Source of the DNA: an uncultured Clostridia bacterium
GTDB lineage: Bacteria > Bacillota > Clostridia > TANB77 > CAG-508
Direction of reading: 5' to 3'
DNA: 55,635 nt
NCBI GenBank assembly: GCA_947630445.1
Contig: CANRHQ010000005.1
Coordinates: 1 to 55,635, forward strand
Shown piece after piece: positions 1-55,635 of this stretch. Both the position numbers and the translations under genes were made by a program. The first letter of the stretch is position 1. Every line of letters starts with the position of its first letter. Under the pieces are notes generated by a model, which saw nothing but the letters and a program-made list of their open reading frames with translations, was not told where the DNA came from and searched no databases.

Positions 1-86
1 GTACCTACACTTATTCCTGCTAATATTATTAGCACTACTACTGTTATTACTACTGCTATTAATGTTATTCCTTTGTTTCTTTCCAT
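1..86 (-). CDS. Pilin-like protein (prepilin-type N-terminal hydrophobic module), 5' end only; the gene body lies left of the window
   Basis: ATG = rc of 84-86; AGGAGG = rc of 94-99 (7-nt spacer). Translates MERNKGITLIAVVITVVVLIILAGISVG.., the same basic-leader/Gly/hydrophobic module as the ORFs starting at 777, 6911 and 55512. Confidence 0.6.
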   Translation of the reverse strand, partial: MERNKGITLIAVVITVVVLIILAGISVG

Positions 87-106
87 ATTCATTCCTCCTT
101 TGCTTC

Positions 107-284
107 TCTTTAATTTATCTACTTAAAGATACTTATAAATTAATTATACCATGTTTTGACAAGAAATACAAGATATTTACAAAATGTAAAATCAGTATTT
201 TAATATAGCAAAAAAACAAGTTAAAAGTAATAAATAAAGACCTCCCGAAAAGAATAAAAAATCCTTAATTAGATAAATTAAGGA
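107..284 (-). promoter_or_regulatory. Candidate invertible promoter cassette, ON orientation toward the gene at 1-86
   Basis: 24-nt inverted repeats 107-130 / 261-284 (21 of 24 positions complementary) flank exactly 130 bp. That segment carries, on the minus strand, TTGTAT (rc 166-171), a 17-nt spacer, then TGgTATAAT (rc 143-151). The -10 box lies 12 nt from the gene-proximal repeat, as in the cassettes at 6934-7117 and 55557-55625. Caveat: the distal repeat is itself palindromic and could be a simple hairpin. Confidence 0.45.
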
Positions 285-300
285 TAAAATATTTAATTTT

Positions 301-352
301 CTTATATAATAAAAGATCAACTATATAAATAGCTGATCTTTTATTATATAAG
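301..352. terminator. Long AT-rich hairpin (19-bp perfect stem, 14-nt loop); probable bidirectional terminator/insulator between divergent pilin-like genes
   Basis: cttatataataaaagatca (301-319) is the exact reverse complement of tgatcttttattatataag (334-352). Confidence 0.5.
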
Positions 353-618
353 CGTAAAAAATACTTTCCCTTTTTAATTATTTTTGTTGTATAAAATTAT
401 ATATTTATGGTTTTAAATGCTTTTCTAAAAATAAAGAACCATCAAAGTATTTTCTTGTTCTACAGTTAAATAATATTTGATTTTTTTCTTATTGCATCAG
501 ATAATTTCATCGTTAATCTCCTACAAAACTTAAAATTCAATAAAATTATAACTAAATACAATAATTCACCACTTTGATACATTGAAAAATATATTTTTTC
601 AATTTGGAGAACAATTTG

Positions 619-647
619 TTGAATTTAAAAAATTAATATGTTATAAT
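619..647 (+). promoter_or_regulatory. Sigma-A-type promoter for the gene at 777
   Basis: TTGAAT (619-624), 17-nt spacer, TGt-TATAAT (639-647, extended -10). No convincing flanking inverted-repeat pair found here. Confidence 0.5.
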
Positions 648-776
648 TTAAATAACTTCAATTTACTAAAATATAAATGAAAGATAAAATTTCTGAAAAA
701 TGGAAAAAGTAATCTTTTTATAGTTAAATTAAGAAATACACATGTCTTCCACAAAAGACAAAGAAAGGGGTTAATT

Positions 777-2276
777 ATGAAAAATTTAAAAAGAAATGTT
801 GATGGTATTACACTTATTGCACTAGTTGTAACCATCGTAGTGCTTTTAATATTAGCAGGAGTAAGTATAAGAATGTTATTAGGAGAAGATGGATTAATAA
901 AAATGGCAACTAAATCTGTTGATGAATACAATAAATCATCAGATGAAGAACAAAAACAATTAGATGACGAAAATAAGTACATAAATGATTTACTAAACAC
1001 AAACCCAAGCGAAGAAAATTATGATGATGTTACAGGTGGAGAAATAAAATTAATGGATACACCACTTACAATTAACACTTGCGATGGATACTATGATACA
1101 TTTTTTACGAATGGAATTGCACAAAGTTTAAGTTATACTAATCAACAAGAAATAAGAATTATTGAAGATAAAGAAACTGGAAAAATTAGTGATAAATTTA
1201 CATCATTTAATTCTGTTTTAACACAAACCAAAAATGAGTCAGGTGCAAGAACAGATTTAATAGTGGGTTGGGATCCAGATAAATATTGGTCTGATATTCC
1301 AAACAACATGATGGCTAATGCACCATATGCATTAGAATTTATGACAGATGCAGACGAAATAATTTTTTATGCTTGTGGATATATAAGAATTTCTGTTGAT
1401 TATCTTGATGGAAAAGGATATTTAATGTCAACTCTAGAAGGTTTTAAGGTTGAAGCAAATGGTACTTATAATGGTTATGTATGTGTGAATTTTGGAGAAA
1501 ACGGCAATAAGCAAAAAAATGTAAAAATTGAAACAGAAGGATCACTTAATTCATTCATTATTGGTAGCGACAAAACAATAGAAAAAGTAGTAAACCGTAA
1601 TCCAAAAAAAATATTATTTATAGGAGATAGTTGGACCGAAGGAGTAGCTATAGATGATGGAAAACGTTATCTATCATTTTCAAACATTATAGCTGATCGA
1701 TTAAATATGGCTTGTATTAATAATGGAATAGGAGGATCTGGTTATAATGAATTAACAATATCTAAGCAAGGTACTGGTCAAGGTATTGAATATGCATATG
1801 AAAAGAGATTAAATAAACAGTTAACTACTTTTCATCCTGATGTTATTGTAATAAATGGTGGTGGAAATGATGTAACTAGTGAAAAAAACATAGACGTAGA
1901 AACAACTAAAGCTCAAGCTGATTCACTATATAGCAAATTAAAAGAATACAAAGACAGCAATGCTGGTTGCAAAGTTGTTATAATGGGAGTAGAATATTTA
2001 GGAGATCCAGTTTTAGAGGAGAAAACTAGAGCATTAAATAATGCTTTAATAGAAACAGCACAAAAATATAACCTTCCATATATAGACTATGTTACAGGAG
2101 ATACTTATGGAGAAAATGGAGAAAAAATAACCATCGGCTCAGGTCCATATATAACAGAAGATTTAAAATCAAAATATATTTATTCAGATAATTTCCATCC
2201 AACAGAAGAGGGTCATAAATATTTAGGAAATGTCTTAGCAGTAGAAATGGAGAAAGCACTTAGAAGTATAAAATAA
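777..2276 (+). CDS. Pilin-like N-terminal module fused to an SGNH/GDSL-family hydrolase domain
   Basis: GAAAGGGG ends at 770, 6 nt before the ATG. N-terminus MKNLKRNVDG/ITLIALVVTIVVLLILAGV. C-terminal half has SGNH blocks FIGDSWTEG (block I), GGNDV (block III) and DNFHPTEEGH (block V). Confidence 0.85.
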   Translation: MKNLKRNVDGITLIALVVTIVVLLILAGVSIRMLLGEDGLIKMATKSVDEYNKSSDEEQKQLDDENKYINDLLNTNPSEENYDDVTGGEIKLMDTPLTINTCDGYYDTFFTNGIAQSLSYTNQQEIRIIEDKETGKISDKFTSFNSVLTQTKNESGARTDLIVGWDPDKYWSDIPNNMMANAPYALEFMTDADEIIFYACGYIRISVDYLDGKGYLMSTLEGFKVEANGTYNGYVCVNFGENGNKQKNVKIETEGSLNSFIIGSDKTIEKVVNRNPKKILFIGDSWTEGVAIDDGKRYLSFSNIIADRLNMACINNGIGGSGYNELTISKQGTGQGIEYAYEKRLNKQLTTFHPDVIVINGGGNDVTSEKNIDVETTKAQADSLYSKLKEYKDSNAGCKVVIMGVEYLGDPVLEEKTRALNNALIETAQKYNLPYIDYVTGDTYGENGEKITIGSGPYITEDLKSKYIYSDNFHPTEEGHKYLGNVLAVEMEKALRSIK

Positions 2277-2296
2277 TTATAAAATATTTATAAAGT

Positions 2297-2323
2297 CATA
2301 ACCACCAAAAATTGGTGGTTATG
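2297..2323. terminator. Hairpin shared by convergent genes (777-2276 and clpC)
   Basis: cataaccacca (2297-2307) pairs with tggtggttatg (2313-2323), 5-nt loop. It overlaps the clpC stop codon. U-tracts are weak. Confidence 0.5.
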
Positions 2324-5056: not shown

Positions 5057-5068
5057 ATGTAACCTCCT

Positions 5069-5354: not shown

Positions 5355-6911
5355 TTAATATAAAAGAACTTTTCCTTTTATCTTTGTTCCTTTGCTTTCT
5401 ACCTCAATGTCATACGATCCATCTTCAAAAGTACTATAATCTATATAATTTCCACCTTCTTCTATATCATTTATTATATTATTTGATATATTTATAGTCC
5501 CTTTTTCATAATTATTAAATAAATAATAATCACATTTTCCACTATCTATTGTTAAGATTTTCTCATTTACAAAATCATATACAAGAATACCACGACCATT
5601 ATACATAGTGTAATCGTAACCATCTTCAGGAAGGCCAACTGCACGTAATATTTCATATTGGTCAATACTTATTGATAATTTTTTTAATATTTCTCCATCT
5701 ATTTTTATTACAAACTCATATTGTCCCATACCACCTATAAGACAACCATCAACTTCTTGACCATCAGCATCTTCAATCGTAATATCACAAAAATAATTTC
5801 TCAAACTAAAAATAATACCGGCATAAGATTCTTCCGTAAACTCTCCTTCATAGACTAGTCCCTCTGCATACATAAAAAAATCCTTTGCATTTGTATACAG
5901 TTTTACAGAATTACATACTTCTTGCATAAAATCCTCAAAATTCCCTGTTTTCGTTACTTCTGCTTCTTGTGCAGCTTTTAATACTAATTCTTCTACTGTT
6001 AATGTACCTGCATCATCATATTTAGTTCTTAATATTTCTATATATGATTCATATGCTTCTTCTGAATGATATCCCATAAAATTCATAACATAATCTTTTG
6101 GTGTAGTGGATAGCTTCTGCTTATCATATATTTCTTGCATATATCCTTCAAAACTATCTTGGGTTGTTAGTCCATCTTCTTGTGCAGCTTTTAATACTAA
6201 TTCCTCGTCTGTCATAAATTTATCTGGATTTTCTTTTAAAATTCTATCTTTCAAGTCTAAAGAAAATTTTAATGTGATAGTTTCTATTTTTCCACTTTCT
6301 CTATTATAACTCCCCTCAAGATAATACATATCTTCTATTTTTTCTTGTTCTGTTACTTCTTGTCCACTTCCATCTACTAACTTTCCTAATTGTACATCTT
6401 CACTTATATTTTTTCCATAGTATACCACATTATATGTGCCACCTGATGTAGCTGCTATAGAAGGGATCCATGGCATCGAATTTGGATGGGAAACCAACGC
6501 AGCCATCCTAGTCTTTCCTGTTACACCCTCTTCGACTACTTTTTCCAATTTATATACATCTTTTAGACCATCTTTTCCGTTTCCATATATCATTTTCTCT
6601 CCCATTAATTTTTCTACATTAATGATATATCCATCTATTCCTTCTTTTATACTTATTATTTCTTTCTCTGTCAAATAATCTATTAATGTTTTTGTATATT
6701 TACCTGTTTGTTTTTCTGTAGCATATTCTGTTGCTTTTAACTCTATTGCCTCATATATTCCTCTATGAGTTGTTTCTATTTTTGCTTTTTTGGCTTGTTC
6801 TATTATTCCGTTATCTCCTGCTAACATTGATATACTTACACCTGCTAATATTAAAAGCACCACTATTGTTACTACTAATGCTATTAATGTTATTCCTTTA
6901 TTCTTTTGCAT
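5355..6911 (-). CDS. Pilin-like N-terminal module fused to an unassigned extracellular region with an internal duplication
   Basis: Preferred start MQKNKG (ATG = rc 6909-6911) with AGGAGGA = rc 6921-6927; the track start 6941 lacks an RBS. N-terminus MQKNKG/ITLIALVVTIVVLLILAGVSI. The remaining ~480 aa carry no motif I can assign. Confidence 0.85.
   Translation of the reverse strand: MQKNKGITLIALVVTIVVLLILAGVSISMLAGDNGIIEQAKKAKIETTHRGIYEAIELKATEYATEKQTGKYTKTLIDYLTEKEIISIKEGIDGYIINVEKLMGEKMIYGNGKDGLKDVYKLEKVVEEGVTGKTRMAALVSHPNSMPWIPSIAATSGGTYNVVYYGKNISEDVQLGKLVDGSGQEVTEQEKIEDMYYLEGSYNRESGKIETITLKFSLDLKDRILKENPDKFMTDEELVLKAAQEDGLTTQDSFEGYMQEIYDKQKLSTTPKDYVMNFMGYHSEEAYESYIEILRTKYDDAGTLTVEELVLKAAQEAEVTKTGNFEDFMQEVCNSVKLYTNAKDFFMYAEGLVYEGEFTEESYAGIIFSLRNYFCDITIEDADGQEVDGCLIGGMGQYEFVIKIDGEILKKLSISIDQYEILRAVGLPEDGYDYTMYNGRGILVYDFVNEKILTIDSGKCDYYLFNNYEKGTINISNNIINDIEEGGNYIDYSTFEDGSYDIEVESKGTKIKGKVLLY
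5802..6212 (-). repeat. Internal tandem duplication (about 70-75 aa unit) inside the 5355-6911 CDS
   Basis: EELVLKAAQEDGLTTQDSFEGYMQEIYDKQKL..DYVMNFMGY..EEAYESYI is followed by EELVLKAAQEAEVTKTGNFEDFMQEVCNSVKL..DFFMYAEGL..EESYAGII. The DNA motif tcttgtgcagcttttaatactaattc occurs twice, about 220 bp apart. Confidence 0.7.
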
Positions 6912-6933: not shown

Positions 6934-7117
6934 TTTATCATTAATTTTATTAACTTAAAGAATTCTAAAATCCTCGGAGGCTTTTATTTTCTAGCTTTTA
7001 TCTTTTTATTAATCTTCATGAAATTCAAAAAAATTTTTTTAAATTCCTTGTAATCATTATTATATTATGTTATAATCACTTTATATATTTCTTTAAGTTA
7101 ATAAAATTAATGATAAA
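6934..7117. promoter_or_regulatory. Candidate invertible promoter element (inverton), OFF orientation relative to the gene at 5355-6911
   Basis: Perfect 29-bp inverted repeats: tttatcattaattttattaacttaaagaa (6934-6962) and ttctttaagttaataaaattaatgataaa (7089-7117). They flank 126 bp containing one strong promoter that faces away from the adjacent gene. Confidence 0.65.
7048..7076 (+). promoter_or_regulatory. Near-consensus sigma-A-type promoter inside the invertible segment
   Basis: TTGTAA (7048-7053), 17-nt spacer, TGt-TATAAT (7068-7076). The -10 box lies 12 nt from the right inverted repeat. Confidence 0.6.
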
Positions 7118-7134
7118 TTTTTACTATAACTATA

Positions 7135-7164
7135 AAAAAGATTGTTGTTTCCAACAATCTTTTT
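7135..7164. terminator. Rho-independent terminator after the GH15 gene (bidirectional)
   Basis: aaaaagattgttg (7135-7147) pairs with caacaatcttttt (7152-7164), 4-nt loop. The A/T runs allow function on both strands. Confidence 0.75.
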
Positions 7165-7167
7165 CTT

Positions 7168-9063
7168 TTATTTATTAAGTTTTTCTAAAACAATTATAAA
7201 CATTGCATGAGACCAACCTAATCCTAATACCCAGTTTGGTTTTAAAGTACTATTATCAATTTGTTCTCCTAAAAAACTATGCTTTCCTGCAGTTTTTATA
7301 ACAAAATCAAATGTTTCCTTTGCTTTTTTCTTTTCTCCATTTTCTAAATAATACAATGTCATCCATAAATTTGCAATTGGCCAAGGTGCACCATTTCTAT
7401 AATGGTCATTTTCAAATCTTTGGTATCCCCCTGTATATGTTCTAATTGTTAAATTAATATTTTCAATAGTATTTTGTATTCTTCTTTCTTTAGGAGAAAA
7501 TACATTAAATGGTATTACAGCCCCTAATAAGCTAATATCTATCCTTTTATCATCTGTATTTCTTACATAAGATTTTCTATTTTCATCATATAAATTTTCT
7601 TCTATATATTTCTTTATTTCAACCTGTAATTTTGATATTGCATCTATATTTTTAGATATTTTTTCTTCTTTTAATCTATTATTTTCAAATTCAGAAACAT
7701 CATCACCTAAAGCATTGTAAATTTTTATCATAGCTCCAAAAGCAGCAAATATACTTGCTAATGAATACAAATGTGTTCCTTCATACATTTCCCACAAGTC
7801 ATAACTTACATGAAACTTTTGAGTTCCATCTATAATATCTCTAGCATATTTTTTCAAAAATTCTATAGCTTTTTCACACATATGTAAATTTACTTTTAAA
7901 AATTTTTCATTTTTTGTATATTCATAGTGTGAATATACTCCATATACTACACTTGCTGTTTCATCAACTTGATATCCCCAACAAGGTGCTAATCTACCAT
8001 CTGTGTAAAAACGTTGTTCCCACATACCATTTTTACTTTGAGTCATTCTACAAAAATTACTGTAAAATTTTTCTGTCTCTTTTGTCATATTCAATATATC
8101 TAATGCTCTTGTTATAAATACTGCATCTCTTGGCCAACAATAAGCATATCTTCCACATTGTGTTAAATCTTCATCAACTTCTGGAGCAGCTATTATTCCT
8201 CCTGTTGATTGATTTGTGAGTAATGGAAATAATAATATACTTCTTTTATAAATATCATATATTTTTTCTTCATAACTATTTTTTGGTTCTTTTATTTCTA
8301 GTCCATTATGTTCTCTAACATATTTTCTCCAGTAAGATTTTGTTTTTGTATATTCCTTTTCTAAATCTATTTTTCTAATTCTTTCAACTTGATCTTCAAC
8401 AGCTTGCATAGTCTTTTTTTCTTCATCAATATATATGCATATTTCAATTTCTTTTTTTTCTCCAGGATTAATTTTTCCTATATCATAGCTTATGCTTGAG
8501 TCTTTTGACATTCCTATATAATCTTTATCATATATTATTGCTGAATGTATCGTATTCTGACTTCCATTTATTTGATGACTTAATAATTTATTTGACTTTG
8601 CAAATGTTGCTACTGAAAATTCATGTGCATATTGAATCATTCCTGTATCTGTTTTCATTCCACTAACAAAATTATTTTGATCTGATAATAATTCTGAATA
8701 GATTAAGAAATTTACATTTAGTTCAATATTTCCATCATTTATAAAAGTATATTTTTTTACTAATACATCTTCTTTTATAATTGCAAAATCTGTTTGTAAA
8801 ATTTTTAAATTAAAATATGTGTTAGTTATTTCTGTATTTAAAATATTTGTGTCTGTATCATAATATTGTAAATATGTATTATTTACATCATCATGTAAAT
8901 ATATTAAATTTGAATCATTTATTTTTACTCCAGTATAGAAAAATTTTAAATATTGTCTATTATCCCTATTAGGATAAGATAAACGTAACATCTCTCCTTT
9001 TCCTGAAAATGTTGCTAATATATTTTTATTTCCTATAATTGCTTCATTTAAGTATTTTTCCAT
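7168..9063 (-). CDS. Glycoside hydrolase family 15 protein (glucoamylase/glucodextranase-like)
   Basis: 631 aa. GGIIAAPEVDEDLTQCGRYAYCWPRDAVF, YDLWEM and GAPWPIANLW motifs are typical of the GH15 (alpha/alpha)6 barrel. RBS AGGGAAGGA upstream. Confidence 0.8.
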   Translation of the reverse strand: MEKYLNEAIIGNKNILATFSGKGEMLRLSYPNRDNRQYLKFFYTGVKINDSNLIYLHDDVNNTYLQYYDTDTNILNTEITNTYFNLKILQTDFAIIKEDVLVKKYTFINDGNIELNVNFLIYSELLSDQNNFVSGMKTDTGMIQYAHEFSVATFAKSNKLLSHQINGSQNTIHSAIIYDKDYIGMSKDSSISYDIGKINPGEKKEIEICIYIDEEKKTMQAVEDQVERIRKIDLEKEYTKTKSYWRKYVREHNGLEIKEPKNSYEEKIYDIYKRSILLFPLLTNQSTGGIIAAPEVDEDLTQCGRYAYCWPRDAVFITRALDILNMTKETEKFYSNFCRMTQSKNGMWEQRFYTDGRLAPCWGYQVDETASVVYGVYSHYEYTKNEKFLKVNLHMCEKAIEFLKKYARDIIDGTQKFHVSYDLWEMYEGTHLYSLASIFAAFGAMIKIYNALGDDVSEFENNRLKEEKISKNIDAISKLQVEIKKYIEENLYDENRKSYVRNTDDKRIDISLLGAVIPFNVFSPKERRIQNTIENINLTIRTYTGGYQRFENDHYRNGAPWPIANLWMTLYYLENGEKKKAKETFDFVIKTAGKHSFLGEQIDNSTLKPNWVLGLGWSHAMFIIVLEKLNK

Positions 9064-10720: not shown

Positions 10721-10733
10721 AAGTTATCTCCTT

Positions 10734-12236: not shown

Positions 12237-12266
12237 TTCTTCTCCTTTCTCCTAGAAAAATCATAT

Positions 12267-22295: not shown

Positions 22296-22313
22296 AATAT
22301 TGAGGTGTTTTAT

Positions 22314-35203: not shown

Positions 35204-35301
35204 TTTACCAAAATCTCCTTCCAATAATATAATTACCTATATAAATTTTAAATTATATTATATATAAAATCAATAGCAATAATTGGTTACACTTACTTAA
35301 T

Positions 35302-46880: not shown

Positions 46881-46897
46881 CCTTCCAATAAATCTGT

Positions 46898-47890
46898 TTA
46901 TCTTTTTTTCATTAATTTTAATACCATATACCTAATATCAAAAAGAATTCTTCCAAAAAGTGGCAAGTTCATTATAATAAAATTTAAAACATAATATGAA
47001 AATGTTTCATTTTTATATAATTCATGATATATATTCCAATTTTTAAAATTAAAGTTTTTCTTTTTTTGAACCATTTGAAAATAATTTAATGCTTTTTTAT
47101 TTAACTCTTGTAACTCTTTTGGAAAACACTTATTATTTTCTACATATGTTCCAAATACTCCTAATTTTACATTTATAAATAATTCTCGAACTTGATCTAA
47201 TTTTTTAAATTTGTGTGAAATTTTATCTGTTCCTATTTGATTATTACCATGTTGCCTATATTTGATATATTTTTCTGTCATATAAGCACTTTTACCATTT
47301 AATGAAACTATTAATCCTATCCAATGGTCATGTACTACATATTTTGAATAATTAGGAATTGGTATTATTTCATTTATATATTGTTTTTTGGATAATAATG
47401 TACATCCTGTTATACAATTATATAAATAGTTTAATTTATAAGTATTTATTTGTTTTTTTATTTTTCTATTTAGTAGCATAAAATCCCCAAATGATGGATA
47501 AATTGTGTTTAAATTTTCATCTACTACTTCTAAATCTCCAAAAACTAAATCTGCATTCTTTTCTTTTAATGTTTGCATTGTTTTTTCTATTTTTTCTTCT
47601 AACCACACATCATCTTGGTCTGACAACATATAGTAATTACTTTCAACTTTTTTTAGCAAAAATTCAAAATTTTTTACATATCCTAAATTTTCTTCTTGTA
47701 GATAAACTGTAATTCTTTTATCTTTATTTTCATATTCTTTTAAGATTTCTCTTGTCATATCTTGAGAATTGTCATCTGAAATTATTAAGTGTATATTTTT
47801 ATAAGTTTGATTTAATATACTATCAATTTGTTCTCGTAAATACTTTTCACCATTATATGTAGCTAAAAGAACATCTATCTTTTCTTCCAT
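46898..47890 (-). CDS. Glycosyltransferase family 2 (rhamnosyltransferase-like)
   Basis: 330 aa. IDVLLATYNGEKYLREQIDSILNQTY, SDDNSQD and SDQDDVW motifs. Paralogue of 48761-49753 and of the N-domain of 39676-41955. Confidence 0.85.
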   Translation of the reverse strand: MEEKIDVLLATYNGEKYLREQIDSILNQTYKNIHLIISDDNSQDMTREILKEYENKDKRITVYLQEENLGYVKNFEFLLKKVESNYYMLSDQDDVWLEEKIEKTMQTLKEKNADLVFGDLEVVDENLNTIYPSFGDFMLLNRKIKKQINTYKLNYLYNCITGCTLLSKKQYINEIIPIPNYSKYVVHDHWIGLIVSLNGKSAYMTEKYIKYRQHGNNQIGTDKISHKFKKLDQVRELFINVKLGVFGTYVENNKCFPKELQELNKKALNYFQMVQKKKNFNFKNWNIYHELYKNETFSYYVLNFIIMNLPLFGRILFDIRYMVLKLMKKR

Positions 47891-47909
47891 CTATTCCTCC
47901 GATTTTATA

Positions 47910-48701
47910 TTACAATACATCTGCAAAGTCTTTTTTATTCTTTTTAAATAAATGATTTCCCCATACAAAAATTATAATTGTTAAAATCCAAAATATTGCT
48001 GTATATATTCCATGTCCTGCTGTAATTATATTTCCTCCCATAAAAGCCTGTCTAAATGCTGTTACTAAATATGTAAATGGCATACATTGAAATATTCTTA
48101 AAATTGTTGTATGTTCTGAAATCATCGTTAATCCCCAAACAATTGGTGTTGCCCAGAAAAATAGTTGCATTACTATTGCTAGTAAATTTGAAAAGTCTGG
48201 TACTAGTGTTGTAATAGCAGAAGTAAATCTTGTTAATGCTATGATAAATATATAAGCTGAAACTAATACATATATTACTTCTAGTATATTAGGTATATAA
48301 CCAAATATTATACAAACAACTGCTGCTATTAAAAATAAAAATATAGATACTATGCTATTTCCTGTTATTGTAATCATTGGTATTATATCAACTGGGAAAA
48401 CTACTTTTTTTACTAAATATGCATATGCTCTAATAGAAGTACTTGCTCCCATAATATTATCATTTAAACACATCCACATTGCCATACCTGGTAAAAACCA
48501 AACTACATATGGTGAGTTTCCTTCTCCTGTTGTTTTAAATATAAATTGAAATACTACTACATACATCATCATAAATACAAAAGGTTGTAAAAATCCCCAT
48601 ATGCTTCCTAGGCTTGTACTTGCAAATCTATTTTTAAAATCATTTTTTCCTAATTTTAAAATTAATTTTCTGTTTTTTATAATTTCTTTTATAAACTCCA
48701 T
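47910..48701 (-). CDS. Polysaccharide-export ABC-2 type permease (Wzm/TagG-like)
   Basis: 263 aa, 6 TM. N-terminal LILKLGKNDFKNRFASTSLGSIWGFLQP is typical of ABC-2 permeases. Confidence 0.85.
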   Translation of the reverse strand: MEFIKEIIKNRKLILKLGKNDFKNRFASTSLGSIWGFLQPFVFMMMYVVVFQFIFKTTGEGNSPYVVWFLPGMAMWMCLNDNIMGASTSIRAYAYLVKKVVFPVDIIPMITITGNSIVSIFLFLIAAVVCIIFGYIPNILEVIYVLVSAYIFIIALTRFTSAITTLVPDFSNLLAIVMQLFFWATPIVWGLTMISEHTTILRIFQCMPFTYLVTAFRQAFMGGNIITAGHGIYTAIFWILTIIIFVWGNHLFKKNKKDFADVL

Positions 48702-48760
48702 TTTTATGCTCCTATCTTTTGGAAATTATATTATATCATCTTTAAAAAATCAATATTCTA

Positions 48761-49753
48761 TTATTCTACTTTTATATTAGAAAATTTTAAATATCCTATT
48801 ATAGGAAAATGAAATAAGATTATCTCTCTAATCATTTTCTTTCCTAAGTTTTTTCCTGCTAAAATATAAAAATAATCTTTTATGTTTTTTAGATTTATTT
48901 TTTTCGTTTCTAATATTGCTTCATAGTATTTTGAAGCATATTCTATAAATTGTTTATTTTCCTCATTTTTTACATATTTTTTGCACATTCTAATTCCATC
49001 TGCATATGCTTTTGTTATTGCACTTTTTCTATAATCCAAATAAGATTTATAATCTCCTCCATTTTCCTTTTTCCACCTACTAATATTTTGAGATAGACTT
49101 CTACCTCCAAATACATTTGTACTATGTAATCTATAGTCAAATAAAGGTTCATATATATAACTTATTCCTTTTTCTTCGTTAGCTAAAAATGCTGATAACC
49201 AATCATGTGCTACAAACCATTTTTTAAATGGTATCATTTTATTTCTAATTTCTTTTGTAATCATTTGTGAGCATCCAATGCCAACACATCTTGATATTGC
49301 TAATTTACTTTTTCCTTTTACTAATGGTACATTTTTATATTTAAAATAATCTTTTTTTATAACTTCATCTTTTTCATTTATTTGTCTACAGTTACAATAT
49401 ACCATATCAACATTATCTTCTTGTAATTTTTTTAATGTTTTTTCTACTTTGTCTTTATACCATATATCATCATGATCAGAAAACATGATATATTTCGCTT
49501 TAGATTTTTTTAATAAGAATTCAAAGTTTTTATTATATCCTAAATTTATTGGTTGAATATAAATTTTTATCCTTGGATCGTTTTTTTCGTATTCTCTTAA
49601 TATTGGCTCTATTTTGTCATTTGTTGATCTATCATCACTTATGTATATTTTTATATTTTTGTATGTTTGTTGCAATATACTATCTATTTGCTTTTTTAAA
49701 AATATTTCGTTTGTGTTATAAGTTGTGAGTAATATATCTACTAATTCCTCCAT
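48761..49753 (-). CDS. Glycosyltransferase family 2 (rhamnosyltransferase-like)
   Basis: 330 aa. VDILLTTYNTNEIFLKKQIDSILQQTY, SDDRSTND and SDHDDIW motifs. Confidence 0.85.
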   Translation of the reverse strand: MEELVDILLTTYNTNEIFLKKQIDSILQQTYKNIKIYISDDRSTNDKIEPILREYEKNDPRIKIYIQPINLGYNKNFEFLLKKSKAKYIMFSDHDDIWYKDKVEKTLKKLQEDNVDMVYCNCRQINEKDEVIKKDYFKYKNVPLVKGKSKLAISRCVGIGCSQMITKEIRNKMIPFKKWFVAHDWLSAFLANEEKGISYIYEPLFDYRLHSTNVFGGRSLSQNISRWKKENGGDYKSYLDYRKSAITKAYADGIRMCKKYVKNEENKQFIEYASKYYEAILETKKINLKNIKDYFYILAGKNLGKKMIREIILFHFPIIGYLKFSNIKVE

Positions 49754-49786
49754 TTAATGTTCCTTTCAATTCTATAATTCTGTTTA

Positions 49787-49815
49787 ATTATATCATTGTT
49801 CTTTATATTTTTCTA
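49787..49815 (-). promoter_or_regulatory. Possible promoter for the glycopolymer operon
   Basis: TAGAAA (rc 49810-49815), 17-nt spacer, TGa-TATAAT (rc 49787-49795, extended -10), in the 70-bp gap after recO. Confidence 0.4.
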
Positions 49816-49823
49816 CATATATG

Positions 49824-50540
49824 CTAAAATTTATACTGTTTTTCCAATTTCTCATTAAAATATAATTTTGATATTAATTTTAGTTCATTTAAAGATTCAT
49901 CTTTTAAATTAAATGAATAAAGTTTTTTAGCTGGTGCCATTATAATATATTTTATTGCATTCATAGTGCTTTCACTCATTTGCAAACAGCTTTTGTCTTG
50001 TTTACTGCATGGTTCACATTTGAATCCATTATCTTTTAAGCTAAAATATTTTAGTTTTTCCTTTTCATCACAATTTGTACATTTGGATATTATTGGTGTA
50101 AATCCTAGGAAACATAATAATTTCATTTTAAAAATACTTATTATTAATTCGGGATCTTTATCTGTTTCTGATAATGTGTATAATGTATTTAAGAACAATT
50201 GTAGTATTTTATAACAATTTTGATTTTCTTCTGTTACATCTCTTATTATTTTTGTCATCTCAACAGCATAATTTAATTTGTCTAAATCTGTTCTTATATT
50301 GTAAAACACTTCTATTGTTTCACATGAGTTTATATTATATGTATTTGCTCCTTTATACATTAAGTATTCCCCAAAACACAAAAATTGTGTGCCAGCAAGT
50401 AAGGCGCTTTTTTGTCTTCTTGCGCCCTTTGCTACACACGATATTTTTCCTAATCCTGGTGTTAACATTGTTAACATTTTATCATAATCTCCTAAGTTAT
50501 TTTCAGAAATTATTATTCCACTCATTTTTATTGTTCCCAT
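49824..50540 (-). CDS. recO: DNA repair protein RecO
   Basis: 238 aa. N-terminal OB-fold segment (GIIISENNLGDYDKMLTMLTPGLGKISCVAKGARR) and a zinc-finger-like CxxC..CxxC (CTNCDEK...CEPC). An alternative ATG lies at 50525. Confidence 0.85.
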   Translation of the reverse strand: MGTIKMSGIIISENNLGDYDKMLTMLTPGLGKISCVAKGARRQKSALLAGTQFLCFGEYLMYKGANTYNINSCETIEVFYNIRTDLDKLNYAVEMTKIIRDVTEENQNCYKILQLFLNTLYTLSETDKDPELIISIFKMKLLCFLGFTPIISKCTNCDEKEKLKYFSLKDNGFKCEPCSKQDKSCLQMSESTMNAIKYIIMAPAKKLYSFNLKDESLNELKLISKLYFNEKLEKQYKF

Positions 50541-50658
50541 TTTGCTCCGCCTTTTGTCCTTGTATTTGTTCTTCTAAACTTTGAATTTCTTTTAGTTCTA
50601 AAAAAGTATTTACATCTCCTGTATTTTTAAAGGTATTCCATGCGATTTTTTTAATCAT
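50503..50658 (-). CDS. yqzL: YqzL-like small protein (51 aa)
   Basis: Below the track cutoff. ATG = rc 50656-50658 with GGAAGTGAG upstream. Encodes MIKKIAWNTFKNTGDVNTFLELKEIQSLEEQIQGQKAEQNGNNKNEWNNNF. Position between era and recO and the W..F..TG....YL..KE pattern match Bacillus yqzL. Confidence 0.6.
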   Translation of the reverse strand: MIKKIAWNTFKNTGDVNTFLELKEIQSLEEQIQGQKAEQNGNNKNEWNNNF

Positions 50659-50725
50659 AAGCTCACTTCCTTTAATTCTATCTTTTGCAATTAATTGAAT
50701 AATTATTCAAAATTTTAAATTACAA

Positions 50726-51628
50726 TTATTTTAGTTTAAATCTTTTTATTATTGATGGATCATCTTGCCAATCTTCTTTAACTTTTACCCATGTTTTTAG
50801 GTTTACTTTTGTACCAAAACTTTTTTCCATTTCTATTCTAGCAGATTGACCTATTCTTTTTAACATGTTGCCATCTTTACCTATTATTATTCCTTTATGT
50901 GAATTTCGTAAACAATATATTGTTGCAATAATATCATATATTTGTTCATGTTGCTTATTTTTTCTTAACTTCATTTTTTCTACTTCTACATATATACCAT
51001 GTGGTACTTCATCTTGTAAAAGATTTAATGCTTTTTCTCTAATTATTTCTTCTGCTAGTTGTCTCATTGTTTGATCTGTATATTCTTCTACACTATAATA
51101 TGCAGGTCCTGGTTTTAAGTTCTTTTCGATTTCACATAAAATAGTTTCTTTATATTTTTCTTTTAGTGAAGAAACTGGTATTACAGCTTCAAAAGGATAT
51201 TCTTTTTGATATAGACTAATTAATTTTAACAAGCATTCTTTTTTTACTAAGTCGATTTTGTTAATAATCAAAATTGCTTTTTTGTGTGATTCTTTAATTT
51301 TTTCAAGAATCCTCATGTCTCCTCTACCTATTTCATTACTCGTTGCTTCTATTACAAATAATATTATATCTATTTCACTTATAGTTGAAAATGATGTTTC
51401 TATCATTGTTTCATTTAATTTTGTTTTTGGTTTATGAATTCCTGGTGTATCTATAAATATAATTTGTGAATTTTCTCTATTTACAATCCCTTTGATTGCT
51501 GTTCTAGTTGTTTGTACTTTATTTGCCGTTGCAGCAACTTTTTCTCCTACAAGTAGGTTAACTAATGTGGATTTTCCCACATTAGTTCTTCCTAGTACTG
51601 CTACAAAGCCTGATTTGAATTCTGACAC
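50726..51628 (-). CDS. era: GTPase Era
   Basis: 300 aa. G1 GRTNVGKST, G3 DTPG, G4 NKID, and a C-terminal KH domain (IIGKDGNMLKRIG). Confidence 0.95.
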   Translation of the reverse strand: MSEFKSGFVAVLGRTNVGKSTLVNLLVGEKVAATANKVQTTRTAIKGIVNRENSQIIFIDTPGIHKPKTKLNETMIETSFSTISEIDIILFVIEATSNEIGRGDMRILEKIKESHKKAILIINKIDLVKKECLLKLISLYQKEYPFEAVIPVSSLKEKYKETILCEIEKNLKPGPAYYSVEEYTDQTMRQLAEEIIREKALNLLQDEVPHGIYVEVEKMKLRKNKQHEQIYDIIATIYCLRNSHKGIIIGKDGNMLKRIGQSARIEMEKSFGTKVNLKTWVKVKEDWQDDPSIIKRFKLK

Positions 51629-51643
51629 TGTTTTCTCCTTTTA

Positions 51644-53956
51644 TTAATTATCTATTTTTTCAGCTGGCTTAACTGTATATTCTAAAATATTAATTGTTTT
51701 TATTATTAGTTTAGAGGCTTCATCTTTTTCGTCTTCTAACATTCCTACTCTAACTATTTTTTTACTTTCTAATTTTAAATCTGTATCTAAAATATTTGCT
51801 ATTATCCTTGTATCTTTATCCATTCCTACTGGCAATGTCTTATTTTGATTGTCATAATATACACAATTTGAAAATGCAATTGCATTTATATTCTGTCCCA
51901 AATTTACTTTATATAAATTTATTTTTGTACTTTCTGTTTCTTTTAATGCCTTTTCTATTTCTTTTTCTGGGTTTAGATTAAATACATTTAAAGCATTTGG
52001 ATTTATTGTTTCATCTTCTTCTGTCCACTTATATCCTGAAATTTCTTGGTCTAATTTATTTTTCTTTAGAGCATCCATCATTACTATTATTTGATGATTT
52101 AGTGCTACTTTATAGTCTACTGCTTGAGTTTCTTTAGATATTCTTAATATTGAATATTTATTTTTTGGTTGCTCTCTATGCGTTTTATTTGCTAATTTTG
52201 TTACTTTTCTAGTATCTTCTGCTAAACTTCCAAATATATCTATGACATCTTCTTCTGTCATGTCTTTTTCATTTTTTAAATCTGTTTTTATTTTTCTTAA
52301 TGATTGCTCTAATTCTTTTGGTTCTACTGTATTTGTTTTTAATTTATTCATTATTTTTATTTGTTCTGTTGTAGCTAGATATAAACTATCTAATTCTTCT
52401 TTTGTTAGTATTTTTCTTTGAATTTCATCCATATTTTTTCCGAATTCATCAAAGTCTTCTTCATAGTCAAATACTTTTGAATGTGTTTTTACATTTACTT
52501 GTTCTTCTTCTCCTTCTTGTAGTGTTTGAACTTCATCTTTATTACTATATTTCCAAAATTCAAATATACTTTTTTTATGACTGTCTATTTCTTGAATATA
52601 TGCTGTTGCATTTTCTATTTTCTTTACTAAATTTACATTTTTTAGTTTTAATGCATTTATATCTAATCTAGCATTTTTTACTTCTGTTTCTTTTTCATTT
52701 GCTTTTTTTCCTAATTCTAAAAGTTCATCTAGTGTATATTGTTTTTTTATTGTTTCTTTTATTTCTTCTATTTGTGGTTCGATATTATTTTCTTGTTTTA
52801 TTCTGCCTTCTACTATATTTTCCTCTTTTTGTCTTGCCTTTTTTCCACTGTATTTAAAATAATATTTTACTTTTCCAAAGAAAGATTTTTTACATTCTAA
52901 AAATGTTGATATTTGTTTTTCTTTTGCCAAATATTCTTTTTCTAATGATTCTGATTGTCTCTTTAATTTTTCTAATTTTCCTTTTAATTCAAAGTTTTCT
53001 TTATTTGCTGTTTTTTCTATTTCTAATAATTTTTTATATTCATCATTTACCCAATCACTTAATTCATCATATTGTAATAATTTATCTTGATAGTGAAATT
53101 CTAAACTTCCTTGTTTGTCTATTTGTGTATCTATTTGATAATATGATGGTAGTTCTGATGCTAAAATGAATAATGCTTTTACTAATTTAAAGAATTTGGT
53201 TGATTCGATTTTGTTTGAAAGTTTTACTTTGTATTCTGATTTTATTTTCCCATATACTTCAGTCTGTCCAACTATTTGTAAACTTGCTTTTTCATTTTTG
53301 TCATATACTTCATATATTGATGGCCAATCTTTTGTAAATAGCCATAAGTAATTTTCTAAACTTTGTATTTCTGTTTTATTTAATAATTCTTTGGTATAAT
53401 CTGCATTGCTTATTGGAACAAATACTTTTCCTGCTTTTTTCTTTTCTATTTGTTTTTTTAATACATAAAAAAATGTTGAATAGTCTTTGTCTTCTGTTGG
53501 TACTATCATAAAATATTTTTGACTTTGTGAAGAATAATATATTTGCCATAAATAATTTCCTGGATATCTTACTTTGAATGGAATTTTTTTGTTGATCTCT
53601 TGTTGTTCTTTTTCTATATTTTCTATTTCTTCTATTTTAACTTCTTTTAACATTCTTAAAAATGTTTCATTTTTTTCTTTATCTTCTTCATTGTTTGGGA
53701 GTAAATAAGATATCAATGGGCTTGCTTTTGCATATTTGTCTTTTACATCATCTAATCTATTTGTTGGAGATAGTAAAATTTCTATTTCTTTTGGAGAAAC
53801 AAATCTATATTGTCTATACTTCTTTTCATCAAATCCTACATTTGGTTTGAATTGTAAGTCTTCTATTAATTTTAATGATTCTGGTATTTCTTTTAGATTT
53901 AGTCCTATATATTCTAATTTTTTTGTTAGTTCTTGTTCTCTGTTTTTCTTTTCCAA
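51644..53956 (-). CDS. Large hypothetical protein (about 770 aa), coiled-coil-rich centre
   Basis: Preferred TTG start at 53956 (GGGAG = rc 53965-53969, 8-nt spacer); an alternative ATG at 53977 has no RBS. The track start 54061 would place the terminator at 54008-54039 inside the gene. No recognisable catalytic motif. Confidence 0.7.
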   Translation of the reverse strand: MEKKNREQELTKKLEYIGLNLKEIPESLKLIEDLQFKPNVGFDEKKYRQYRFVSPKEIEILLSPTNRLDDVKDKYAKASPLISYLLPNNEEDKEKNETFLRMLKEVKIEEIENIEKEQQEINKKIPFKVRYPGNYLWQIYYSSQSQKYFMIVPTEDKDYSTFFYVLKKQIEKKKAGKVFVPISNADYTKELLNKTEIQSLENYLWLFTKDWPSIYEVYDKNEKASLQIVGQTEVYGKIKSEYKVKLSNKIESTKFFKLVKALFILASELPSYYQIDTQIDKQGSLEFHYQDKLLQYDELSDWVNDEYKKLLEIEKTANKENFELKGKLEKLKRQSESLEKEYLAKEKQISTFLECKKSFFGKVKYYFKYSGKKARQKEENIVEGRIKQENNIEPQIEEIKETIKKQYTLDELLELGKKANEKETEVKNARLDINALKLKNVNLVKKIENATAYIQEIDSHKKSIFEFWKYSNKDEVQTLQEGEEEQVNVKTHSKVFDYEEDFDEFGKNMDEIQRKILTKEELDSLYLATTEQIKIMNKLKTNTVEPKELEQSLRKIKTDLKNEKDMTEEDVIDIFGSLAEDTRKVTKLANKTHREQPKNKYSILRISKETQAVDYKVALNHQIIVMMDALKKNKLDQEISGYKWTEEDETINPNALNVFNLNPEKEIEKALKETESTKINLYKVNLGQNINAIAFSNCVYYDNQNKTLPVGMDKDTRIIANILDTDLKLESKKIVRVGMLEDEKDEASKLIIKTINILEYTVKPAEKIDN

Positions 53957-54007
53957 AATAGTCGCTCCCTTCCTCATTTTTATATAGTATATTTTACTAT
54001 TCAATTC

Positions 54008-54039
54008 AAAAAATAGCAAGATTTTTCTTGCTATTTTTT
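54008..54039 (-). terminator. Rho-independent terminator after the pilin-like FGE gene
   Basis: aaaaaatagcaag (54008-54020) pairs with cttgctatttttt (54027-54039), 6-nt loop. Confidence 0.75.
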
Positions 54040-54105
54040 GTTTTTTTATATTCAAAATCATAATGCTCTATATCTTTTGAGTAATTAATTTGAAAGCACA
54101 AATTT

Positions 54106-54262
54106 TTACTTGACGTACAGTGTGGCACGTGAACTAAGATCGATGATGCTGTCGGCAGGACTATTGCTGTCGCGGTAACTAGCTGGCCAGTTAGAACCGG
54201 AAACGCCGTAAGCGCCCCCACGATTATCACGAGAGTTGATGCCGTAAGCCTCTAGAGACCAT
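54106..54262 (-). other. Candidate DGR variable region (VR) at the 3' end of the FGE-domain gene
   Basis: Right after ..REW the codon usage flips. 21 of the last 50 codons end in C (TAC GGC ATC AAC TCC CGC GAC AGC GCC GTC..). All four Arg codons are CGT/CGC. The apparent scaffold codons lack adenine (GGG GGC GCT GTT GGT TCT TGG CCT CTT CTG). I counted 33 A in 150 nt, in an otherwise A-rich gene. Confidence 0.55.
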
Positions 54263-55512
54263 TCCCTCATGTTTCCTGCTAGGTCATATATATTTTTTAC
54301 TCTATTTAATACTTGTTCATCTTTTTTTAAATCTACTCCTGTTTTATGGTCGCTATTAGTATTATTATCACTTCCTTTTACTCCACTGTACCAGCCCATT
54401 CCACTACTATCTGTTATATAATACTTATTTCCTCCTGTTAATGTTGGATTTTTTTCATCTTTCATCCACAACATTACTTGGTCCCACTGGCATCCCCATA
54501 TCATGCTACTTGTTACACTTGACTGTGTTTTTCCTTGTGTTTTTTCTTCCTCTGTTAATGCTCCTTTTGCTATTTCTTTACTATTTTTATACATTGTATA
54601 CCAATTTGTGTCTACTGTTGGATTTTCTCCCTTTTTTACTTTTGGAATTTCATTGTCTTTTAATCCTGATGTCTCGTATCTTCCTATATAAAAACCTCCA
54701 TATTTTCCTACACTTTTTGCCATTTCATAAAATTCGTTTTGTAATTGTTCTAAAAACTTTTCACTTGTTTTTACTTCTCCTTCTACTACTTTATTTAAGT
54801 TTGTATCGCTTCCATCACATTGTGTTCCATCTCCACTAGAATTGCCAGTTACTACTGCTGGCTCTCTATATCCACTGTTCGCATTATATGTTGTATTTGA
54901 TGTTAATGTATTACCATTAATAGTTGTATATAGCTTTCCTACCAATTCTTGGTTGCTTGGCGTATGTGTTTCACTTTCACCATGAGTACAAGTGAATGTA
55001 TTTGTTTCCTTATTAAAAGTAATTGTAGATCCTGAATGCGTTTTACACATTACCATATCATTTATTGCTACTGGCACCCATACAAATTCATTTCCATCTC
55101 TATCTTGTACTACTATTCCTTCATCTATTTTGTCTCCTTCTGTTATTTTAAATCCTGCTGGTATAGTCATACTTTTGTCTCCATCTTTTACCTCTGTTGT
55201 TTCGTTAAATGGGTCAGTTTTTTCCTTTGCTTCTTCTAATGTTGTTTGTGTTGTTCCTCCACCAGAACCATCTCCTCCTGTTCCTCCGTTTACCCAATTT
55301 GGTATATCTTCTGCTGTTTTGTTAAGGTCTTGCTCTTCTTTTGCTTCCTCTTCCCTTGTTCTTTCTGCTGCTAGCTTTGCTTGGGCTATTATTCCATTTT
55401 CTCCAGTTAACATAGCAATAGCTACTCCTGCTAATATTAAAAGTACTACTATTGTTACTACTAATGCGATTAAAGTGATACCTCTTGTTGCCTTCAAATT
55501 TTTCTTTTTCAT
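54106..55512 (-). CDS. Pilin-like N-terminal module fused to an FGE-sulfatase / C-type-lectin-fold domain
   Basis: 468 aa. RBS GGAGGAAG. N-terminus MKKKNLKATRG/ITLIALVVTIVVLLILAGVAI and a Gly-rich linker. The FGE-type domain runs from MTIPAGF..FVWVP to YDLAGNMREW..RGGAY..SYR....P, matching the GN(V)WEW / RGGSW / R..R pattern of that fold. Confidence 0.85.
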   Translation of the reverse strand: MKKKNLKATRGITLIALVVTIVVLLILAGVAIAMLTGENGIIAQAKLAAERTREEEAKEEQDLNKTAEDIPNWVNGGTGGDGSGGGTTQTTLEEAKEKTDPFNETTEVKDGDKSMTIPAGFKITEGDKIDEGIVVQDRDGNEFVWVPVAINDMVMCKTHSGSTITFNKETNTFTCTHGESETHTPSNQELVGKLYTTINGNTLTSNTTYNANSGYREPAVVTGNSSGDGTQCDGSDTNLNKVVEGEVKTSEKFLEQLQNEFYEMAKSVGKYGGFYIGRYETSGLKDNEIPKVKKGENPTVDTNWYTMYKNSKEIAKGALTEEEKTQGKTQSSVTSSMIWGCQWDQVMLWMKDEKNPTLTGGNKYYITDSSGMGWYSGVKGSDNNTNSDHKTGVDLKKDEQVLNRVKNIYDLAGNMREWSLEAYGINSRDNRGGAYGVSGSNWPASYRDSNSPADSIIDLSSRATLYVK

Positions 55513-55556
55513 TTTTTCTTCCTCCGTTCTTTTGTTTATTATATTTCCTTGTAAAA

Positions 55557-55625
55557 TTTCTTTAATTTTTTATGCTTAAAGAAAATGTATGAACTAATTA
55601 TAACAAAGAGGGACAATAAGTTCAA
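55557..55625 (-). promoter_or_regulatory. Promoter plus gene-proximal repeat of a third cassette, ON orientation; distal part lies beyond the window
   Basis: TTGAAC (rc 55620-55625), 17-nt spacer, TGt-TATAAT (rc 55597-55605), 12 nt, then TTTCTTTAAGCATAAAAAATTAAAGAAA (rc 55557-55584). This element is related to the CTTTAAG..ATAAA.TTAA repeats at 107-130 and 7089-7117. Confidence 0.5.
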
Positions 55626-55635
55626 GCATTTTACT

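Follow-up and report, generated by a model that had tools for sequence, protein, structure and literature searches.

Four genes with a common leader and different cargo domains

We analyzed a 55,635-nt stretch of DNA from an uncultured Clostridia bacterium (contig CANRHQ010000005.1 of GenBank assembly GCA_947630445.1, positions 1 to 55,635; hereafter, the window), which carries four genes whose products share the leader [KR]G-ITLIALVVTIVVLLILAG. A six-frame scan of the window for this motif gave exactly four matches, the same genes for which a first-pass annotation, made from the letters alone, had proposed a common leader. Three of the copies encode an identical 19-amino-acid (aa) peptide, GITLIALVVTIVVLLILAG, from DNA that differs at 7 to 11 of 57 nt. 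Since all of these differences are synonymous, the peptide is under selection rather than freshly duplicated. The hydrophilic leaders (MERNKG, MKNLKRNVDG, MQKNKG, and MKKKNLKATRG) all end in Gly and are followed by a mostly hydrophobic stretch of about 21 residues, ITLIALVVTIVVLLILAGVSI, as in a class III signal, which is defined by a leader ending in Gly and 21 hydrophobic residues that include a Glu at position 5 (Glu5) (PMC6916266).

The four genes continue into different proteins. The first (positions 1 to 86, minus strand) is cut by the window start, leaving its 5′ end of 28 codons, with MERNKG followed by ITLIAVVITVVVLIILAGISVG. The second (777 to 2276, plus strand) encodes a 499-aa modular pilin with a class III-like leader, a linker region, and a C-terminal SGNH/GDSL esterase domain at residues 279 to 485 (PF13472, E = 2e-21). 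The third (5355 to 6911, minus strand; 518 aa, with an alternative open reading frame [ORF] start at 6941) combines a pilin-sized module of ~190 aa, homologous to stand-alone proteins of 130 to 210 aa, with a cargo that had no family match. This cargo contains an internal duplication (5915 to 5990 versus 6128 to 6203, ~81% DNA identity) with the repeated motif EELVLKAAQE...FMQE. The fourth (54263 to 55512, minus strand; whole ORF 54106 to 55512, 468 aa in total) consists of a leader, a Gly-rich linker, and an FGE-sulfatase/C-type-lectin-fold cargo from a family of at least 4,995 proteins. As a single sequence this last protein matched nothing in the PDB; only a profile search, which returned SUMF2 (E = 0.002) and the Treponema retroelement target TvpA, and an AlphaFold2 (AF2) model (pLDDT 87.7, pTM 0.91), which Foldseek matched to PvdO, FGE, TvpA, TaqVP, and Mtd, were informative, and by these matches the FGE/C-type-lectin call is right. 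The swapped cargos proposed in the first-pass annotation were therefore borne out by fold or family for two proteins and, for the third, go no further than the duplication. In the former two, the pilin module is fused to domains (SGNH, FGE/C-type-lectin fold) that are not specific to pili.

Leader family and link to type IV pilus operons

With the first 125 residues of the 6911 protein as the query, more than 3,700 proteins with the same leader were retrieved, mostly of 80 to 210 aa and almost none of them named. A scan of 185,579 species genomes located at least 555 loci with the leader, every one from uncultured Clostridia of the human, rabbit, chicken, or deer gut, 80 of which were fetched and analyzed (designated by L numbers). 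Two classes of leader protein were apparent in these 80 loci: one of 127 to 173 aa, with leaders of 5 to 6 residues and genes often in tandem, and another of 200 to 1,481 aa, with dispersed genes and longer, more variable leaders. The Pfam cargos of 74 large members comprise BspA-type LRR (LRR_5; 12 proteins), GLUG (7), DUF285 (4), Dockerin (4), FGE-sulfatase (4), and GH5 cellulase (3). Truncated leader-only ORFs of 41 to 60 aa were also present in L014, L015, L053, L054, L058, and L084. A literature search for the leader peptide gave no match.

The prepilin peptidase (PilD), assembly ATPase, and platform genes that the first-pass annotation had suggested looking for are absent from the window and its 10-kb flank, yet they accompany same-leader pilins in 11 related loci. 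These are all but two of the fetched loci with the small class of protein, and all 11 keep the order PilMN-PilO-pilins-PilD-PilB-PilT-PilC. In full, the operon runs PilM/N-like, PilO-like, tandem pilins, prepilin peptidase, two pilin-like proteins, PilB, PilT, and PilC. The operons of P0068 and P0115, whose host is a spore-former with 26 to 29% GC, are of the textbook monoderm type and encode T2SSF and two or three T2SSE ATPases along with a prepilin peptidase that matches A24_N_bact. The tandem operon pilins begin with M(R/K)NNKG followed by ITLIALVVTIIVLLILAGVSIAMLTGDNGIL; position +5 is Ala in the small operon pilins and in the large proteins, while one other pilin-like protein of the operon has Ser there and another has Asp. 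One metagenome-assembled genome, BRZ_EF bin101, has the operon (L079), inverted-repeat-flanked pilin genes (L015), and a pilin associated with a diversity-generating retroelement (DGR) (L067).

The stalk also ties the two classes together. Over the first 40 residues after the Gly, operon and large dispersed pilins agree at 35.3 of 40 positions in the same genome and at 30.3 of 40 between genomes, a large shift, although the pairs are not independent. Such covariation within a genome would be the pattern expected from coassembly in one filament, or from gene conversion kept for it. The window proteins score 13.3 to 18.4 bits with the pilin motif PF07963, under its curated cutoff of 21.2 bits, while an operon pilin with the same stalk (L079) scores 24.3 bits, over the cutoff; among the large family members, 5 of 74 match at E ≤ 1e-3. 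The AF2 model of the 6911 N-terminal module (pLDDT 79) has a long helix (residues 5 to 31 and 36 to 68) followed by four strands. From this context, and not from biochemistry, we infer that the window leader proteins are type IV pilins of a Glu5-less lineage.

The first-pass annotation had taken the Ala at position +5 (Ala5) as an argument against fiber subunits and had likened the proteins to the bindosome of Sulfolobus. On that account the leader would be only a PilD-processed export or anchor signal, and the cargo would be displayed on the surface or released, outside the pilus filament. With Ala at +5, the charge to which subunit docking has been attributed is indeed lost (PMC10191384); the cargos are large and in some cases enzymatic (SGNH, GH5 cellulase, dockerin); the cargo-pilin genes lie far from any pilus operon; and the large proteins, compared with the operon pilins, have leader peptides of greater length and variability. 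Yet the major-pilin-sized proteins of the operon, encoded beside PilD, PilB, PilT, and PilC, carry the Ala5 leader too, so that Ala5 is the norm for this pilus and loses its force as an objection. Moreover, some 35 to 40 stalk residues, far more than an anchor requires, track the major pilin of the same genome, and in Streptococcus sanguinis modular pilins that carry bulky domains have been shown to be part of the pilus (PMC8179133). Because the operon proteins share the Ala5 leader, coassembly into the pilus is more likely than a bindosome-like route, and we consider it unlikely that the leader serves export or anchoring alone.

Promoter cassettes with the anatomy of invertible switches

All four window genes have an extended −10 promoter, as the first-pass annotation had stated. 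That of gene 777+ is fixed (619 to 647, plus strand; TTGAAT-17-TATAAT with TG) and has no flanking inverted repeat. In the other three, the promoter lies in a cassette of ~110 to 140 nt flanked by inverted repeats of 21 to 37 nt. The CTTTAAG..TTAA repeat that had been reported downstream of three promoters is real and corresponds to the gene-proximal arm of these inverted repeats, although it lies 14 to 15 nt past the −10 box instead of 12.

In cassette 1, the proximal arm (104 to 130) is the dyad TCTTTAAG-TAGATAA-ATTAAAGA and the distal arm (261 to 287) has the spacer TTATCTA, the reverse complement of the proximal one; the 27-nt arms are 85% complementary and 130 nt apart. The interior (131 to 260, minus strand) is ON, with the extended −10 TGGTATAAT (151 to 143, minus strand) facing gene 86−. 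Cassette 2 has 37-nt arms (6934 to 6970, proximal, pairing as an inverted repeat with 7081 to 7117, distal) that are 92% complementary, 110 nt apart, and score 29. Its interior (6971 to 7080, plus strand) is OFF, since the promoter TTGTAA-17-TGTTATAAT (7048 to 7076, plus strand) faces away from gene 6911−. Cassette 3 is cut by the window end: its 24-nt arms (96%) comprise a proximal arm at 55559 to 55582 and a distal arm ~130 nt past the window end (L005, 9775 to 9798), and on L005 the whole cassette spans 9775 to 9954. The interior part within the window (55583 to 55635, minus strand) is ON, with TTGAAC-17-TGTTATAAT (55625 to 55597, minus strand) facing gene 55512−.

Just three inverted repeats in the whole window score 14 or more, and two of these are cassette pairs; the observed scores are 29, 21, and 15, whereas Markov-simulated windows max out at 14 to 15. 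Each arm is a dyad, TCTTTAAG-N7-8-ATTAAAGA, with an asymmetric spacer that varies from cassette to cassette and reads inverted in the partner arm. Because the spacer is inverted, the arms are true inverted repeats and not two copies of a palindromic operator, and their layout, to judge from the sequence, is that of a recombinase core site. As in invertons, the repeats flank a short promoter segment beside a gene.

Relative to their genes, homologous cassettes were seen in either orientation. For cassette 2, alignment to its paralogues scores 58 and 49.5 when it is reverse-complemented and 22.5 and 14 as is, so the earlier observation that the 6934-to-7117 cassette is flipped was correct. No flipping is needed to align cassette 1 with cassette 3, but cassette 2 and the L090 cassette align with it only in flipped form. 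L090, from a fourth sample of the same project, contains a leader gene (1501 to 1805) with the same first 28 codons as gene 86−: the ribosome-binding site and the first 86 nt are identical at 105 of 105 positions, while the adjoining cassette, at 1305 to 1481, matches cassette 1 at 110 of 131 positions solely when flipped, i.e., in the OFF orientation. This gene has an in-frame TAA at codon 33 (32-aa product), where relatives have Glu, Asp, or Gln, and the pilin frame continues beyond. Another leader gene, in L101/L102, has a perfect 21-nt inverted-repeat pair with the promoter facing the gene (ON), in a cassette at L101 6784 to 6977; these contigs come from the same samples, at about the same 4× coverage, and the gene is a probable paralogue from the same genome. 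Repeats of the same family also surround pilin genes of two related genomes, three times in L015 and once in L020.

These repeats could instead be paired operators or regulator elements of the 5′ untranslated region (UTR), with the flip at 6934 to 7117 a fixed rearrangement and no phase variation today. Repressor operators are typically dyads, as each arm is; the 5′ UTR contains the proximal arm, 14 to 15 nt past the −10 box; and no recombinase for the repeats was found by Pfam, motif scan, or tblastn in the window, L005, L015, or L020. (Pfam covered all ORFs of the window and L015, the motif scan was for serine recombinases, and the tblastn queries were XerD, FimB, and Hin; all were negative for the cassette-bearing loci.) The 6911 cassette, in addition, is identical and OFF in three assemblies; the opposite orientation was not found in them, and a scan of Joint Genome Institute metagenomes for the locus returned nothing. 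No single locus showed both orientations in the assemblies compared, in which only homologous cassettes do so. The comparison with L090 is also weakened, since its cassette is 84% identical to cassette 1 and its distal flank differs, making it a second or rearranged locus and not simply the other state of the same one. Promoter orientation in the L015 and L020 cassettes is ambiguous in AT-rich DNA and was not used as evidence, and most lineages have fixed promoters. One of these is L068, which is syntenic to window positions 45960 to 55544 with 75 to 83% nucleotide identity. At the position of window gene 55512−, it has a leader gene (9974 to 11437) with a different cargo subfamily and a fixed promoter, from which it follows that cargo and control turn over at a conserved chromosomal site.

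What an operator would not account for is the nonpalindromic spacer, inverted between the arms in all three window cassettes, or the presence of homologous cassettes in both orientations (ON at 86−, 55512−, and L101; OFF at 6911− and L090), one ON/OFF pair of which (86− and L090) adjoins an identical gene start. We hence regard fixed operators as quite improbable and invertible promoters as the better explanation. The phase-variable control claimed in the first-pass annotation accordingly stands as far as the cassettes have the anatomy of an invertible switch and one of them is flipped, and falls short in that each assembly of the 6911 locus has the same orientation and no recombinase turned up. 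The recombinase may be encoded elsewhere in the genome.

Tyrosine-recombinase-like ORFs lie less than 3 kb from leader genes in four unrelated loci (L045, ~8033 to 8638; L077, ~11256 to 11688; L009, ~7009 to 7506; and L016, ~12178 to 12627), none of which had convincing inverted repeats around these ORFs. Contig ends cluster at cassette borders in several samples, which is suggestive only. Three SPAdes contigs from three samples start at window position 54, 76 nt outside the inner end of the proximal arm; the window end (55635) is 76 nt inside the outer end of another proximal arm; and L102 begins (position 1, equal to L101 6978) at the first base after an arm. The ends at 54 and 55635 coincide with k = 77, yet the imperfect arms and the 105-nt exact repeat predict other break points. 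The ends may reflect mixed orientations in the reads and were not kept as evidence. A literature search on invertons, pilins, and Clostridia found nothing on point, only a single paper on another subject.

A probable retroelement signature at the 3′ end of gene 55512−

The first-pass annotation had compared the 3′ end of gene 55512− (54106 to 54262) with the variable region (VR) of a DGR. The compositional anomaly is real: the last ~51 codons (54109 to 54262, minus strand) form a 154-nt block of 53% GC and 21% A, with GC-rich codons, versus 34% GC and 46% A in the rest of the gene. A VR-like 3′ end on a gene for a C-type-lectin/FGE fold is the arrangement found in DGR targets, and such targets do exist in the family. 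The other DGR components are missing locally, with no template repeat (TR), Avd, or reverse transcriptase (RT) in ~65 kb (the window and its 10-kb flank) or in 15 kb around the L101 paralogue, and no TR for 54109 to 54262 in the window, L005, the L101 locus, or any search of the fetched loci. Judged on the window and its flank by themselves, the DGR claim would fail.

Among the relatives, when every large member was scanned at its 3′ end, five had a downstream repeat, with mismatches almost exclusively at adenines of the downstream copy (22 of 25 mismatches in L085, 21 of 22 in L067, 23 of 24 in L027, 9 of 10 in L009, and 23 of 29 in L060). An RVT_1 gene lies beside four of the five TR/VR pairs (L067, L027, L009, and L085) and bAvd beside three (L067, L027, and L009), in a scan of the flanks of these four loci. 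L067, L027, L009, and L085 are complete DGRs with a type IV pilin fusion as their target. Two of them have a ~160-aa ORF, with a match like MutS domain I, in the interval from the pilin VR gene to bAvd (L067, 11829 to 12299; L027, 2974 to 3465). We found no literature joining a DGR with a type IV pilin, and one survey lists a G-type pilin domain among rare DGR targets, without comment (PMC11661182).

Aligned without gaps to the L067 template, which comes from another species, the window VR mismatches at 29 of 46 A positions and at 21 of 65 others (p = 0.001). The 3′ end of the L101 paralogue has the same GC-rich nucleotide scaffold as the window VR, down to unusual GC-rich Gly and Arg codons, and the differences between the two again concentrate at template-A positions of L067 (20 of 48, versus 13 of 70 elsewhere; p = 0.006).

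The block might nonetheless be no more than the C terminus conserved in the FGE/C-type-lectin fold, or a fossil left by earlier retrohoming, with no retroelement acting now. The lack of TR, Avd, and RT around both genes fits this, as does the mismatch to the L067 template at 32% of non-A positions. The 55512− product, moreover, is identical on both contigs that carry the gene, and no ongoing diversification was seen. A conserved protein end would not, however, readily confine GC-rich, A-poor codon usage to the last ~150 nt of a gene in a genome of 26% GC, nor explain a nucleotide scaffold shared with a paralogue and differing mainly at template-A columns. Complete retroelements stand beside related pilins, with five TR/VR pairs, and DGRs with remote targets are known, e.g., in Treponema denticola. 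We give the conserved end or fossil somewhat less than even weight; the simplest account, toward which we lean, is that one retroelement elsewhere in the genome targets, or once targeted, both the 55512− and the L101 gene from a distance. Its cognate TR would resemble ATCGTGGGGGCAAYTACGGC..., with adenines where the window and L101 VRs differ.

Genomic context and other window genes

The window has 26% GC and carries nearly all of its genes on the minus strand. By Pfam of all window ORFs, its content is housekeeping and cell envelope, including ClpC, FtsK, MutL, MiaA, MreB, DivIVA, SepF, Era, RecO, a long polysaccharide gene cluster, and cell-wall hydrolases. A contig extending 10 kb past the window end adds SpoIIID, HtrA, and RNase HII, with nothing bearing on pilins. 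The host is a gut Clostridium of low GC that forms spores and is uncultured. Neither Rfam nor tRNA scans gave a match in the window.

A prophage-remnant origin of the leader genes, which the first-pass annotation had named as a possible refutation, was rejected: the surroundings are housekeeping and envelope genes, Pfam found no phage genes in the window, and just 8 leader matches were present in 2.9 million viral contigs.

A protein with VWA and immunoglobulin-like domains (22305 to 23702, plus strand) ends in LPKTG, a hydrophobic stretch, and a basic tail and is a sortase-anchored adhesin, so that the host has a second, unrelated surface display route. Its gene is the sole large plus-strand gene in mid-window and has no inverted repeat upstream. 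Two large paralogues with DUF6941 matches (30070 to 32688 and 32753 to 35224, both minus strand), one with a C-terminal M14 carboxypeptidase and one with a C-terminal GH25 muramidase, are probably cell-wall hydrolases; the contig of another assembly appears to break within this repeat. The closest homologue of the lectin-fold cargo on a long contig, P0244 (L099, 7001 to 7933; 310 aa, 66% identity), has a Mob_Pre relaxase and numerous small ORFs without annotation in its neighborhood and may be on a mobile element.

A model of modular pilins with switchable and diversifiable cargo

Taken as a whole, we consider it probable that the window encodes modular type IV pilins with a shared Ala5 stalk and swapped cargo, under control by invertible promoters and a retroelement. 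Each protein would be built from a short basic leader ending in Gly, a hydrophobic alpha-1 stalk with Ala at +5, and a grafted C-terminal cargo. A divergent PilD-type peptidase would cleave after the Gly, and the shared stalk would then allow insertion into the pilus, probably as a low-abundance or tip subunit. The pilus itself would consist of a same-stalk major pilin, assembled by PilMN/PilO/PilB/PilT/PilC machinery whose genes lie elsewhere in the genome. A cargo-pilin in the filament would have its cargo displayed, and the displayed cargo would be chosen gene by gene through promoter inversion: a trans-acting site-specific recombinase would flip the ~110- to 140-nt cassette between inverted dyad sites, TCTTTAAG-N7-8-ATTAAAGA, each with a cassette-specific spacer. 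In the window assembly two cassettes are ON, facing their gene, and one is OFF. The VR-like block of gene 55512− would most likely have been written by a DGR elsewhere in the genome, or since lost, and retroelements would diversify lectin-fold cargos in at least some genomes. Within this picture, the data establish the leader family and its tie to pilus operons, the folds of the cargos, the layout of the cassettes with their flip, and the retroelements of relatives, whereas cleavage, entry into pili, switching today, and retroelement action on the window gene are deduced.

Besides the points already raised on cassettes and VR, several observations weigh against this model. Position +5 is Ala, and not Glu, in all four window genes, while in known systems Glu5 is absent only from the tip-capping subunit (PMC10191384). 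Foldseek gave the N-terminal pilin module no significant match to a solved pilin in the PDB. Pilus machinery, recombinase, and RT are all absent from the window and the 10 kb past its end, and the presence of a pilus operon in the window organism is an extrapolation from relatives. In the L001 pilus operon, the homologue of prepilin peptidase (10445 to 11251) has a bacterial A24 N-terminal domain (E = 1e-30) with no detectable Peptidase_A24 catalytic domain, and has IDSIKL in place of the expected GxGD-type motif; such a divergent peptidase may go with the divergent leader.

The pilin-like surface proteins with swapped cargo that the first-pass annotation described are supported; as a design they are not a new kind, since the shared-stalk, grafted-domain concept of modular type IV pilins was set out by Raynaud et al. 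in 2021 (PMC8179133). As in PilB and PilC of S. sanguinis (PMC8179133), an N-terminal pilin module is joined to a grafted domain not specific to pili, in many architectures; those modular pilins are minor or tip adhesion subunits, a role probable here as well, and in both cases the host is monoderm and the machinery, here that of the related operons, includes PilT. Unlike them, the window proteins carry Ile1 and Ala5 where Phe/Met1 and Glu5 are canonical, most members of the family fall under the PF07963/IPR012902 threshold and so would have escaped an InterPro census, the genes are single and scattered, in several copies per genome, rather than in a pil locus, and some stand behind invertible promoters or beside DGRs. 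A class III-type leader without Glu5 on binding or enzymatic proteins recalls the Sulfolobus bindosome and archaeal pilins, from which the present family differs in its bacterial PilB/PilT/PilC/PilMNO machine, a PilD with the bacterial A24 N-terminal domain, and a stalk sequence common to the major pilins.

Familiar invertons are fimS of Escherichia coli, the Mpi-controlled capsule promoters of Bacteroides fragilis, and the RecV-controlled switches of Clostridioides difficile. The cassettes resemble them in placing short inverted repeats around a promoter segment of ~100 to 300 bp just upstream of a gene for a surface structure, and the dispersal of switches with a common repeat motif implies a trans-acting master recombinase. 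Unlike these known invertons, the window cassettes have arms that are each a dyad with a cassette-specific spacer, and control individual pilin-cargo fusions and not whole operons; no recombinase was found for them, nor was switching observed. Invertons have been widely catalogued (e.g., PMC11602134).

The DGR signature has a close parallel in Bacteroides, where type V pilus adhesins are diversified by DGRs (bioRxiv 10.1101/2024.11.15.621889). Like those adhesins, and like TvpA (2Y3C), TaqVP (5VF4), and Mtd, the 55512− cargo has a C-type-lectin/FGE fold with a C-terminal variable region, and the relatives of its gene show the adenine-directed TR/VR mismatches, Avd, and RT of DGR systems. Presentation of a hypervariable ligand-binding module on a pilus would be a further likeness to Bacteroides type V pili. 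Here, in contrast, the carrier is a type IV pilin stalk in Clostridia, and the window copy is without a retroelement in cis. The statement in the first-pass annotation that no described system has this combination of properties is fair for type IV pilins, with the Bacteroides adhesins as a near analogue. Each component is already known; their combination on a Glu5-less pilus family is new.

A bolder extension would make the Glu5-less pilus, throughout a large clade of uncultured gut Clostridia, a programmable display scaffold. Many dispersed cargo-pilin genes, for adhesins, lectin folds, esterases, and cellulases, would be turned on or off independently of one another by private invertible promoters that answer to one master recombinase, cassette-specific spacers would block cross-recombination between cassettes, and the lectin-fold cargos would in addition be hypervaried by one DGR with several remote targets. 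We offer it tentatively and would sooner doubt it than rely on it; if true, it would amount to combinatorial phase variation plus targeted hypermutation of a single organelle.

The same-leader pilins number thousands in gut metagenomes, and the three of the window score under the curated threshold for the pilin motif. If the model is right, a bacterium would build a type IV pilus from major subunits without Glu5, the residue believed responsible for subunit docking. The combination is of real interest to both pilus and microbiome research, and read sets already available, as well as any cultured representative, allow a direct check of the prediction. Abundant uncultured gut Clostridia would then vary their adhesion or degradation targets through cargo-pilins with individual promoter switches, while a retroelement would rewrite the binding site in some of the genes, in parallel to the type V pili and capsules of Bacteroides.

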